A stretch of DNA of 64,000 nt, from assembly GCF_003334815.1 (NCBI RefSeq), contig NZ_QOWO01000004.1; one strand, given 5' to 3'. Position 1 is the stretch's first letter. The number at the start of each line of letters is the position of its first letter. Source of the DNA: Escherichia coli (GTDB lineage: Bacteria > Pseudomonadota > Gammaproteobacteria > Enterobacterales > Enterobacteriaceae). A program made the translations under genes and the position numbers. Of the stretch, positions 4,348 through 32,891 are shown in pieces. The notes under the pieces are model-generated. The model did not search any database. It was given only the letters and a program-made list of their open reading frames with translations, and was not told where the DNA came from.

Positions 4348-4354
4348 AACCAGA

Positions 4355-4535
4355 GACGCATCCGGCATTTGGTTCCTGTCGCCGGATGCGGCTTGAACGC
4401 CTTATCCGGCCTACAAAACCATACAAATCAGTATGTTGAGCTTATTGTAGGCCGGATAAAACGCGCCAGCGTTGCATCCGGCATTTGGCTCCTGTTGCCG
4501 GATGCGGCGTGAACGCCTTATCCGGCCTACAAAAC
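4355..4535. repeat. BIME cluster: three REP units in alternating orientation
   Basis: gccggatgcggcttgaacgccttatccggcctac (4381-4414), inverted copy (4446-4484), and gccggatgcggcgtgaacgccttatccggcctac (4497-4530). Confidence 0.8.
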
Positions 4536-4589
4536 CACACAGATCATGATGTTATGTGCGTTTATGACCGAATGCGGACCACATTCACA

Positions 4590-10830: not shown

Positions 10831-11499
10831 TCAGTTGTGATGACGCACAGCGCGCAGAAACTCGTGGCGCGTATTCTGACTGGATTTGAACAATCCACCA
10901 AGAGAGGTCGTTGTCGTGGCACTGGTTGCATCGCGGATGCCACGCGCCTTCACGCAGTAATGCACCGCGTCGATCGAGACAGCCACGTTATTGGTGCCCA
11001 GCAGCGTTTGTAGCGCAATAAGAATTTGCTGCGTCAGACGTTCCTGCACCTGCGGACGCTGGGCAAAGAACTGCACAATGCGGTTAATTTTTGACAGACC
11101 GATCACCGAATCTTTCGGGATATAGGCCACCGTCGCTTTGCCATCGATGGTAACAAAATGGTGTTCACAGGTGCTGGTCAGAGTGATATCGCGCACGGTG
11201 ACCATTTCATCGACCTTCATTTTGTTTTCAATGAGGGTGATTTTCGGGAAATTGGCGTAATCCAGACCGGAGAAAATTTCATCGACATACATTTTAGCGA
11301 TGCGATGCGGCGTTTCCATCAAACTGTCATCAGCCAGGTCGAGATTCAGCAGCTGCATGATTTCGGTCATATGACCAGCAATAAGGCTTTTGCGCGTTTC
11401 GTTATCCATTTCATGCACGGGCGGGCGCAGCGGTGTTTCCAGTCCTCGCGCAACTAACGCTTCATGAACCAGGGCCGCTTCTTTACTGAGTGATGGCAT
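10831..11499 (-). CDS. folE: GTP cyclohydrolase I
   Basis: 222-aa ORF recognised as FolE; length matches. Confidence 0.95.
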
Positions 11500-11723
11500 T
11501 TATGATTTCTCCTGCAGGTGTGACGCCTCCGCCCTGCGTGGGGGCAAAGTTATTAAGCTGATTTACAGCCTGATTATTGTGCGTGAGGCGGCGCACATAA
11601 TCCAGTATTCACAGCGATAATTATTGTAATTGCCGCTGCCTTTCATCAGCAGATGTTAAAACATCGTTATGCAAATACGGAAGTGAAAGTTACTCACAGC
11701 ACATTGAATAAACGGTATGATGA

Positions 11724-12593
<870 letters not shown>

Positions 12594-12599
12594 AAGTCC

Positions 12600-12615
12600 G
12601 CCCGGTTCGCCGGGC
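12600..12615. terminator. Short hairpin between convergent yeiG and cirA
   Basis: gcccgg-ttcg-ccgggc (6-bp stem, UUCG-type loop); no clean T-tract on either side. Confidence 0.3.
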
Positions 12616-12624
12616 ATCTTCTCA

Positions 12625-14616
12625 TCAGAAGCGATAATCCACTGCCATAAAGTAACGACGTCCGTCTTCGTTATAGCTGTAGTCGTCACGACTGAGATCC
12701 TTGTCGCCAAGGTTCAGCACGCCTGCGCGCAGTTTGACGTCTTTAGTCACCTGCCAGGCCGCGCCGGTATTCCAGATGGTATAACCGCCCGGTGTTTTAG
12801 CCGTCGCGCTGTCGGCGCGTTTCTGCCCGGTATAGTGCCCAGAAACATAGAATGACCAGTCTTCCAGCGCCAGCGGTTTCCAGTCCAGCGTACCGTTAGC
12901 AGTATGGAACGGCAGATCGGATAGCGGTTTGTTTTCGCCGTTGCTGACATCACGACCATCGTTGTAGGTGTAGTTGATCGACAGTTTCCATTCATCGTTG
13001 AACGGAATTTTCAGTTCGGTTTCCACGCCCTGAATACGAGCTTTGTTAACGTTGTAGTAGCTAAATACCGGTATGCGCCGTCCGTTAGCGCCCGTCTCAA
13101 AACCAACAAAGTTTTGGTAGCCCGGTGCAGCGTTGACGTCAGACGTACGGCTGATGCTGATACGATCTTTCACATCGTTACGGAAAACGGTAACGCTGGA
13201 TTCAACCCCTTCCAGCCAGCCTTCTTCACCCATGTAGTAAAGCCCCAGCTCCCAACTTTCGCTGGTTTCTGGTTTCAGATCCGGGCTACCCACAATCTTA
13301 CATGCGCCACGGCAGGAATTGCTCGTCCAGTCAGGGCTAAGTTGCAACAGAGAAGGTGCTTTAAATGCCGTCGCCCAGCCCCCTTTCACCGTTACGGTGT
13401 CGGTGGCGTTATAAACCAGGTAGGCACGCGGACTCCAGTGTTCACCGTAGGTTTCGTGATCGTCCATACGCACGCCGGTCGTCAGCGCCAGCGGCTCGAA
13501 GATCCGCCATTCATCTTCCACAAACAGCGCGTACTGGCTGGCAGACGTTTTGGAGCTGGTTCCCCCGGTCAGGTTCACCGCATCGCTAAGTTTGTCGTGA
13601 CGCCATTCACCGCCAACCGTGAGAAACTGATTAATCGCCGTCAGCGGCAACGTGTATTTGCCGTCGACCGTATTGCTTTCGGAAGTTATCGGGCTGCTGT
13701 TGCCAGGGTTTTTGTTCTCGACTTTCTCACCGTAGTATTTCAGTTCGCTGGTGCCGTAATCCCAACGCCCATTATGGCTGACGGAGTAGTTCTGGCGTTC
13801 CAGGCGGTTTTTGTCCAGCGAGTCGGAATCACGATCCTGACGGTCGAAACCGTATCCGGCAGTAAAATCGTGATTTTGATTCGGTGTCCAGGCAAATTCG
13901 ACATTGCCGTCGCGGCTGGAGAATCCTTCAATACGCGGCGTTTCTCCGGTATCGGTGGTCGTTGAGTTTTGCGGGTCATCCTTTTCACGTTTTGCCAGGC
14001 TGCCGTAAGCTTTCATTCCCAGCACACCATCAATTAATGGTCCACTGGTAAAGAACTGACCGTTATAGGTGTCACCGCGATCGCGATGTTCCTGAATGGT
14101 GGTATCGACGGTAACGGTACCCGACCATTTCTGACCGATTTTTTTGGTGATGATATTCACTACACCGCCGAGCGCATCGGAACCGTACAGCGACGACATC
14201 GGGCCACGGACCACTTCAATACGTTCGATGGAATCGACCGGGATCCAGTTCAGATCGAAATCATTGTGGCGGAAGACGGCATTGCGGGAGTTCACGCGTT
14301 TACCGTCGACGAGAATCAGGGTATAGCTGCTGTCCAGACCACGAATACTAACGCCCTTACGGTTATCCCCTTCGTTCGTCAGTTGTACGCCAGGCACTTC
14401 TTTGAGGACATCCTTCAGATTCTGTACCGGTTTTCGCTGCAGGTCTTCCTGGGTAATGACGCTGATACTGGCAGGTGCATCTTTAAGATTTTGTTCCACG
14501 GAAGATGCAGTGACAACCATCGTTTCGCCATCATCATCGACCGCTAACACAGGCCATGCACAAGAAATAGCGGACAAACACAGCCCGACCCGTACGAAAG
14601 GGTTCAACCTAAACAT
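12625..14616 (-). CDS. cirA: TonB-dependent catecholate siderophore / colicin Ia-Ib receptor
   Basis: 663-aa ORF with signal peptide, TonB-box-like ETMVVTA and C-terminal aromatic (YRF). Confidence 0.95.
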
Positions 14617-31709: not shown

Positions 31710-32891
31710 ATGCATAACTCCCCCGCAGTCTCCAGCGCGAAATCGTTTGACCTGACCTCGACGGCGTTTTTAATCGTTGCCTTTCTCACCGGTATTGCGG
31801 GCGCTCTGCAAACCCCGACACTCAGTATTTTTCTTACCGATGAAGTACATGCCCGTCCGGCGATGGTGGGATTCTTCTTTACCGGCAGCGCTGTCATTGG
31901 GATTCTGGTAAGTCAGTTTCTCGCCGGGCGCTCTGATAAGCGCGGCGATCGCAAATCGCTGATTGTCTTTTGCTGCCTGTTAGGCGTGCTGGCCTGCACC
32001 CTTTTTGCCTGGAATCGCAACTACTTTGTTTTGCTATTCGTTGGCGTCTTTCTTAGCAGCTTTGGCTCGACCGCTAACCCGCAAATGTTTGCCCTTGCCC
32101 GTGAACATGCCGACAAAACCGGACGTGAGGCGGTGATGTTCAGCTCTTTTTTACGCGCTCAGGTTTCACTGGCATGGGTCATTGGCCCACCGCTGGCTTA
32201 TGCCTTAGCGATGGGTTTCAGCTTTACGGTAATGTATCTGAGCGCAGCGGTAGCGTTTATTGTTTGCGGTGTGATGGTGTGGCTGTTTTTACCGTCGATG
32301 CAAAAAGAGCTTCCGCTGGCGACCGGCACGATCGAAGCGCCGCGCCGTAACCGTCGCGATACGCTGCTGCTGTTTGTCATTTGTACATTGATGTGGGGCT
32401 CGAACAGCCTGTACATCATCAACATGCCGCTATTTATTATCAACGAACTGCATCTTCCCGAGAAACTGGCCGGTGTGATGATGGGGACCGCCGCCGGGCT
32501 GGAAATCCCGACGATGTTGATTGCCGGATATTTCGCCAAACGTCTGGGTAAGCGTTTCTTAATGCGCGTTGCTGCCGTGGGTGGCGTCTGTTTTTACGCA
32601 GGAATGCTGATGGCGCATTCACCTGTCATTCTGTTGGGCTTGCAGCTGCTAAATGCTATTTTTATTGGCATTCTGGGCGGCATCGGGATGCTCTATTTTC
32701 AGGATCTGATGCCCGGTCAGGCGGGTTCAGCCACCACGCTCTATACCAACACTTCGCGCGTGGGCTGGATCATCGCAGGATCAGTGGCGGGCATCGTCGC
32801 CGAGATCTGGAATTATCACGCTGTGTTCTGGTTTGCGATGGTGATGATTATCGCCACTCTGTTTTGCTTACTGCGGATTAAAGATGTTTAA
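31710..32891 (+). CDS. setB: Sugar efflux transporter B (MFS)
   Basis: 393-aa 12-TM ORF, divergent from fruB. Confidence 0.9.

Follow-up and report, generated by a model that had tools for sequence, protein, structure and literature searches.

Rho-dependent transcripts, as described by Dar & Sorek (2018), end right after a stem-loop that protects them against PNPase and RNase II, and such an end can lie inside the neighbouring gene. For convergent genes, Ju, Li & Liu (2019), as summarised by Wang et al. (2022; bioRxiv 10.1101/2022.10.23.513370), reported overlapping bidirectional terminators that are Rho-independent, and in the same summary the collision of polymerases at a hairpin-induced pause is proposed as the cause. 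The canonical bidirectional intrinsic terminator, an A-run, a GC stem and a T-run, occupies the same position between convergent genes, and REP/BIME elements have been proposed to act as partial, partly Rho-dependent terminators and as stabilisers of mRNA (Harris et al. 2026; bioRxiv 10.64898/2026.03.23.713779). The kind of 3' end found where yeiG meets cirA in Escherichia coli is already known, and the yeiG end itself already stands in two public tables. A literature search found no paper discussing the cirA terminator or the yeiG/cirA junction. What is new at this locus is the cirA end at a hairpin within yeiG codons, a 64-nt overlap of the two RNAs, the turnover of the junction hairpin across genera, and compensatory changes.

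The window analysed is a stretch of 64,000 nucleotides of E. coli DNA. Its positions 12560-12660 are identical to K-12 MG1655, and a window coordinate equals the MG1655 coordinate minus 2232153. The two genes and the spacer between them are as follows.

11757-12593, + strand: yeiG coding sequence (S-formylglutathione hydrolase; b2154), stop codon TGA at 12591-93 (ORF list, RefSeq annotation)
12625-14616, - strand: cirA coding sequence (catecholate siderophore receptor; b2155), stop codon TGA at 12627-25 (ORF list, RefSeq annotation, sequence)
12594-12624, unstranded: spacer of 31 bp between the yeiG and cirA stop codons

The 31 bp between the stops, first pointed out in a sequence-only reading of the window, are borne out by the ORF list, by the sequence and by the MG1655 RefSeq annotation, which has identical genes at identical spacing. 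The cirA stop is followed directly by a second in-frame TGA (12624-22). The junction was found in 5423 of 5426 complete E. coli genomes and is contiguous in 5333 of them; yeiG is named in 5333 or more E. coli genomes. Tight spacing of this sort is ordinary. Among other convergent pairs in the window, setB and yeiW overlap by 4 bp (32888-32891), yejF and yejG stand 3 bp apart (45737-45739) with a 9-bp hairpin across the yejF stop, and REP-type palindromes occupy the junctions preA/mglC, yeiI/nupX and yeiL/psuT (4348-4589, 20636-20741 and 23862-23931). For LB cultures, Adams 2021 (PMC7815308) lists 99 3' ends classed both as 'primary' and as 'antisense'.

Folding places three structures at the junction.

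12600-12615, unstranded: spacer hairpin GCCCGG-TTCG-CCGGGC, six G-C pairs and a 4-nt loop; seven pairs on the cirA strand, including a U.G pair
12586-12627, - strand: extended imperfect palindrome, enclosing the spacer hairpin and formed by pairing of UGAUGAGA, from the cirA stop region, with the complement of the sequence at the yeiG stop
12561-12578, unstranded: second hairpin CTGCGC-TTCCAT-GCGCAG in the yeiG codons Leu-Arg-Phe-His-Ala-Gln; on the cirA strand CUGCGC-AUGGAA-GCGCAG

The sequence-only reading had taken the spacer hairpin to be the single structure present. This is true within the 31 bp of the spacer, but the second hairpin lies only 21 nt away in yeiG, and the longer palindrome encloses the first. 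As RNA, the 31-nt spacer has a minimum free energy of -12.7 kcal/mol on the + strand (z = -2.7) and, with the extra U.G pair, of -13.6 kcal/mol on the - strand (z = -3.1); 2 of 200 shuffled sequences folded as well. The longer segment 12557-12627 reaches -28.7 kcal/mol on the - strand (z = -4.1), a value equalled by none of 200 shuffles. The loop does read UUCG on the + strand, as had been remarked, but it does not form the extra-stable cUUCGg tetraloop, since the closing pair is G-C (G-UUCG-C) rather than C-G and the hairpin taken by itself folds with -11.2 kcal/mol on either strand. On the cirA strand the loop is CGAA, and in relatives the loop is of 7 nt. A palindrome between convergent genes also recalls the REP/BIME elements; that identity was rejected, as the spacer hairpin is a single-copy structure of 16 nt, the sole hairpin of its kind in the window and by inspection unlike the REP-type palindromes found there. 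An Rfam scan of 11400-15000 (E <= 1) returned nothing at the spacer, and its only hits were weak sub-threshold matches near the lysP terminator. The latter is a canonical intrinsic terminator at 14867-14890 on the - strand, a 10-bp stem followed by UUUUUCAAUU, just upstream of the cirA promoter region; the TRS data place the lysP 3' end at MG1655 2247011-14.

Of the two parts of a canonical intrinsic terminator, the spacer hairpin has the GC-rich stem-loop and lacks the U-tract directly after the stem. Its tails are AUCUUCUCA (+) and GGACUUUCAC (-), and neither side carries a T-run or U-tract; nor was a 3' end within a U-tract, some 7-9 nt past the stem, found in either direction. The absence of T-tracts on both sides had been noted from the sequence and is upheld by a consensus terminator scan, which called the hairpin on neither strand, and by the TRS 2023 dataset (PMC10687069), in which the longest U run at the yeiG terminus is 2. 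A discriminant of the d'Aubenton-Carafa type (d'Aubenton Carafa 1990) gave d = -26 for the spacer hairpin read as + strand RNA and -38/-43 for the - strand; the lysP terminator nearby scored +3.6. The spacer hairpin thus fails the discriminant for a canonical intrinsic terminator on both strands, and it differs from a canonical bidirectional terminator in having neither A-run nor T-run.

The 3' ends that have been mapped at the junction, and the zone that they delimit, are these.

12620, + strand: 3' end of yeiG mRNA (...GCCGGGCAUCUU-3'), 5 nt past the spacer hairpin (Adams 2021 Term-seq and TRS 2023)
12557, - strand: 3' end of a cirA-strand RNA (...GCGCAGGUGA-3'; Adams 2021 Term-seq)
12557-12620, unstranded: overlap zone of the convergent RNA 3' ends, 64 nt with both hairpins inside (derived from the mapped ends)

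The yeiG end is entered as 'primary' at MG1655 2244773 (+) in Adams 2021 (eLife, PMC7815308, supplementary file 1), with 1086 reads in LB at OD 0.4 and 753 in M63; the coordinate convention of that table (50 nt before the end base, that base, and 10 nt after it) was checked against its thrL entry. Independently, the TRS study (Nat Commun 2023, PMC10687069) has a 'Primary' yeiG terminus at 2244773, in a peak covering 2244769-78. The sole nearby end on the cirA strand in Adams 2021 (PMC7815308) is 2244710 (-), with 75,451 reads and on the M63 sheet only; the same Term-seq data list no - strand 3' end at the spacer hairpin and no cirA-strand end in LB. The end at 12557 falls 4 nt past the second hairpin, 37 nt inside the yeiG reading frame and 63 nt beyond the yeiG end. 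From its strand, its position and the condition in which it appears, we infer that the RNA ending here is the full-length cirA mRNA. The implied 3' UTR of ~68 nt (12624-12557) folds into the second hairpin and an extended imperfect stem that encloses the spacer hairpin. cirA is repressed by Fur in iron-rich LB, and this repression would account for a cirA-strand end that appears in M63 only.

It follows from the ends at 12620 (+) and 12557 (-) that the yeiG and cirA-strand RNAs overlap by 64 nt, and from the listing of the cirA-strand end 63 nt past the spacer hairpin that polymerase reads through this hairpin in the cirA direction. The proposal, made from sequence, that one hairpin ends both genes therefore fails, Term-seq placing the yeiG end alone at the spacer hairpin. 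Clean ends of both transcripts at the hairpin, free of read-through, are likewise not what was found: the cirA-strand RNA passes the hairpin and produces an antisense overlap.

Two further 3' ends on the - strand lie in the vicinity. At window position 14652 (MG1655 2246805), 36 nt upstream of the cirA start codon, Adams 2021 Term-seq has an abundant end, with 49,924 reads in M63. It suggests that the cirA leader is terminated prematurely or processed. Folding of the leader region revealed no significant structure; the leader is a known target of RyhB/Hfq control. The other Term-seq end, at 11516 (MG1655 2243669), is 17 nt upstream of the folE start codon and just before the Shine-Dalgarno sequence, with 25,757 reads in LB and 57,177 in M63.

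The mapped positions bear on whether the spacer hairpin could be a weak bidirectional intrinsic terminator, one that releases polymerase a few bases past the stem both ways without Rho, perhaps aided by NusA or NusG. The stem is stable and GC-rich, the yeiG end is 5 nt past it in two datasets, and the + strand tail AUCUUCUC holds four U among its first 7 nt. Relatives add to the case: at the orthologous junction, true bidirectional terminators of the A-run, stem and T-run kind occur in Mixta (L082), Citrobacter freundii (L061), Atlantibacter (L047/L048) and Kluyvera (L009), and in E. whittamii a TTTTTT run follows the homologous hairpin beside cirA at a distance of 4 nt. Yet in E. coli the U-run is absent, d is strongly negative on both strands, and the consensus scan is silent; the listed end in the cirA direction is 63 nt beyond the hairpin, and a Rho-sensitive region lies downstream on the + strand. 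We regard this explanation as unlikely, though the position of the yeiG end, 5 nt past the stem, would also fit a hairpin that terminates weakly and an RNA that is then trimmed slightly.

A second possibility, after Ju 2019 and Wang 2022, is that the hairpin pauses polymerases arriving from both sides, which are then released by head-on and trailing collisions. As in the class so described, to the extent that the summary of Wang et al. (2022) portrays it, the genes are convergent, their 3' ends overlap across the hairpin-encoding segment, and neither direction has a strong intrinsic terminator. The yeiG/cirA junction departs from that portrayal in having two hairpins, one for each RNA end, with a 64-nt overlap, in a yeiG end that is independent of cirA expression, and in the Rho region nearby, the published class being described there as Rho-independent. 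The independence shows when the media are compared: a cirA-strand end is abundant in M63 and unlisted in LB, and the yeiG end is at one and the same base in the two, so that opposing traffic is not needed to place it. Moreover, yeiG reads are low (~750-1100), so collisions should be rare for the polymerases transcribing cirA. Collision as the cause of both ends is in our judgement quite unlikely.

The Rho region just mentioned was reported in another table of the same Term-seq work.

13128, + strand: Rho termination region (bicyclomycin-sensitive), antisense to cirA (Adams 2021 supplementary file 2)

Its entry in Adams 2021 (PMC7815308) is 2245281 (+), with a score of 3.6 and a significance of 4.7e-5, and it falls ~0.5 kb past the spacer hairpin, inside cirA. 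Since it was computed from 800-nt windows in LB, it is only loosely placed, the source of its RNA is equally loosely defined, and it could reflect an antisense promoter inside cirA instead of read-through from yeiG. Folds around the region (13070-13135) showed no significant structure. The enrichment of C over G downstream of the hairpin is weak for the + strand, with a ratio of 1.1-1.3 within the first 150 nt; on the - strand the ratio is 1.7-1.8 at 180-290 nt, which is the 95th percentile of the window (1.75). Rho dependence, or else transcriptional interference, had been suggested from the sequence as a possible consequence of ending both genes through one short GC hairpin. Rho dependence stands as plausible, given the missing U-tract, the failed discriminant and the bicyclomycin-sensitive region on the + strand, but that region is coarse and known from LB only. 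With these three features, the region being 0.5 kb on, some read-through cleaned up by Rho is a plausible course of events.

The second hairpin, within the yeiG codons, is no better an intrinsic terminator by the discriminant (d = -51); the consensus scan calls it on the + strand. Its stem is perfect in 25 of 64 species, of which seven, mostly Enterobacter, have CTCCGC...GCGGAG, a compensatory swap of G-C to C-G. Within E. coli, 210 genomes carry TTGCGC...GCGCAA, a C-G to U-A swap at 12561/12578 in which both changes are synonymous and which is again compensatory, and two single-change forms that were tested had no exact match in ~5350 genomes. The two compensatory changes are independent of each other. 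Covariation across species is marginal: the share of paired cells is 78.1%, compared with 76.2% after shuffling, and 7 of 500 shuffles were as good. A perfect internal stem occurs in 22 of 42 species with cirA adjacent and in 3 of 22 without (Fisher P = 0.003, a test that ignores phylogeny). Taken as comparative evidence, these data are suggestive of selection for the pairing and are neutral as to the strand on which it acts.

For the spacer hairpin, chance has to be weighed against conservation. The 64-kb window contains five perfect 6-bp all-GC hairpins, compared with 4.1 +/- 2.6 in first-order Markov simulations, so that the motif is not enriched overall, and the probability of finding one in a given 31-bp slot is ~1e-3. 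Among seven divergent Escherichia sequences, none of the 16 hairpin columns varies, compared with 9 of the 15 flanking spacer columns (P ~2.5e-4). The hairpin occurs at a single place per genome in 5405 genomes, and the 62-nt segment around it is present once per genome, at >=99% identity, in 5140. Conservation of this kind is a stronger argument than the slot probability that the hairpin is not a product of chance, and supports a function for it.

Beyond Escherichia, a scan for CirA with one genome per species yielded 80 loci, and the convergent order of cirA and yeiG persists from Escherichia as far as Erwinia, Pantoea and Mixta. In the 42 species with spacers of 17-131 bp the sequences are unrelated, and 90% have folds with z < -2 (median z -4.8); a stable hairpin or palindrome of unrelated sequence stands at the junction in 38 of 42 other species. 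Plain GC hairpins free of T-runs are found in Escherichia, in Kosakonia and at two further loci (L036, L044), and REP-like pairs in Enterobacter, Leclercia, Pseudocitrobacter and other genera; CCCTCTCCC/GGGAGAGGG palindromes are also among the orthologous structures, besides the bidirectional terminators named above. An automatic sorting of these hairpins by their flanking T-runs was discarded as too crude, since T-runs that pair with A-runs are absorbed into the stem. The retention of a stable fold despite unrelated sequences shows that selection keeps a hairpin at the junction and not one particular hairpin. In one member of the set, Enterobacteriaceae bacterium RIT714 (L015), the spacer contains five tandem copies of GATGACCC beside two GC hairpins. 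Another record, labelled Chryseobacterium sp. 18061 (L033), has an enterobacterial cirA-yeiG locus with CirA 80% and YeiG 86% identical to those of E. coli, and is probably mislabelled or contaminated.

The junction is also the site of a four-gene island of ~4.26 kb, which separates yeiG from cirA in 86 of 5426 E. coli genomes. It replaces a short segment of the K-12-type sequence.

12586-12607, unstranded: 22-nt K-12-type junction segment, comprising the last three yeiG codons, 6 nt, the left hairpin arm and half the loop

The same island is present in Salmonella arizonae, in E. whittamii and in a Citrobacter sp. (island-bearing loci: L087, 1763-6000; L003, 2565-6819; L006, L008 and L035). 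Its genes encode an HTH protein, an L-serine ammonia-lyase, a SerB-like phosphatase and an MFS transporter. In the island form the stop codons of yeiG and of the HTH gene are directly adjacent (0 bp apart), and the cirA side keeps a longer hairpin, ATGCCCGGCG-N7-CGCCGGGCAT. The K-12-type C-terminus of YeiG (..YLLK*), followed by a short spacer with a hairpin of the CCCGGCG type, is common to Kosakonia and others. The junction without the island therefore seems to be the older state, and the island seems to have arrived by insertion or by recombinational import, with the direction of change unproven. The same grounds speak against the idea that the tight spacing is the scar of a deletion.

That the homology between island-bearing and island-free loci breaks within the loop, at 12607/12608, raises the question of whether the spacer hairpin has any function. 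It might be a chance palindrome, since the simulations contain six-base GC hairpins no less often than the window does, or a scar from an event that added or removed the island, whose junction is in the loop. Such a reading is hard to square with 16 invariant bases amid a flank where 9 of 15 vary, with an RNA 3' end mapped at the foot of the hairpin in two datasets, with the stable structure kept in 38 of the 42 other species, and with the longer version of the hairpin retained beside cirA in the island-bearing form. We consider it highly improbable.

The explanation that we hold to be probable, if far from assured, is that the yeiG 3' end is defined and protected by the spacer hairpin, a stem-loop lacking a U-tract, within a zone of bidirectionally leaky termination, with the help of Rho and of exonuclease trimming. 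Neither hairpin would be an efficient intrinsic terminator, and RNA polymerase would mostly pause at them or read through. Release would come further downstream, in untranslated antisense RNA and largely by way of Rho. Exonucleases working 3' to 5' would then trim each RNA to the first stable hairpin that they meet, which for yeiG is the one in the spacer and for cirA the one inside yeiG. Head-on collision of polymerases may strengthen the barrier when both genes are active but would not set the position of the yeiG end. These three steps are favoured because the end of each RNA is at the hairpin that an exonuclease approaching from downstream would encounter first, and both 3' ends lie 4-5 nt past GC stems whose tails hold no U-run.

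Of the described systems, that of Dar & Sorek (2018) is matched in the steady-state ends of yeiG and cirA, 5 and 4 nt after stable stem-loops devoid of a U-tail, in the position of the cirA-strand end in the coding region of its neighbour, and in the Rho-sensitive region downstream on the + strand. The downstream C-over-G signal differs in being weak at yeiG/cirA, and here it is from the mapped end positions that we infer termination, release by Rho and trimming.

A more far-reaching proposal is that the 3' end of cirA mRNA is stabilised by the hairpin in the yeiG codons, which would be maintained by selection on synonymous or near-synonymous sites, and that iron limitation, through strong cirA transcription and the 64-nt antisense overlap, couples yeiG to iron status, either by collision or by RNase III cleavage of the 3'-3' duplex. 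We think this very doubtful; if true, expression of yeiG, and with it the detoxification of formaldehyde and methylglyoxal, would be tied to iron status, which would be of modest interest.

The findings have little significance beyond the locus, where they provide a worked example of how two tightly convergent genes can be ended without a canonical terminator. For annotation, they show that an absent T-run is not an absent 3' end, and that the 3' UTR of cirA, at ~68 nt, reaches into yeiG. Across genera, a hairpin at this junction is retained while its sequence turns over, from plain GC hairpins to canonical bidirectional terminators and REP-like palindromes.
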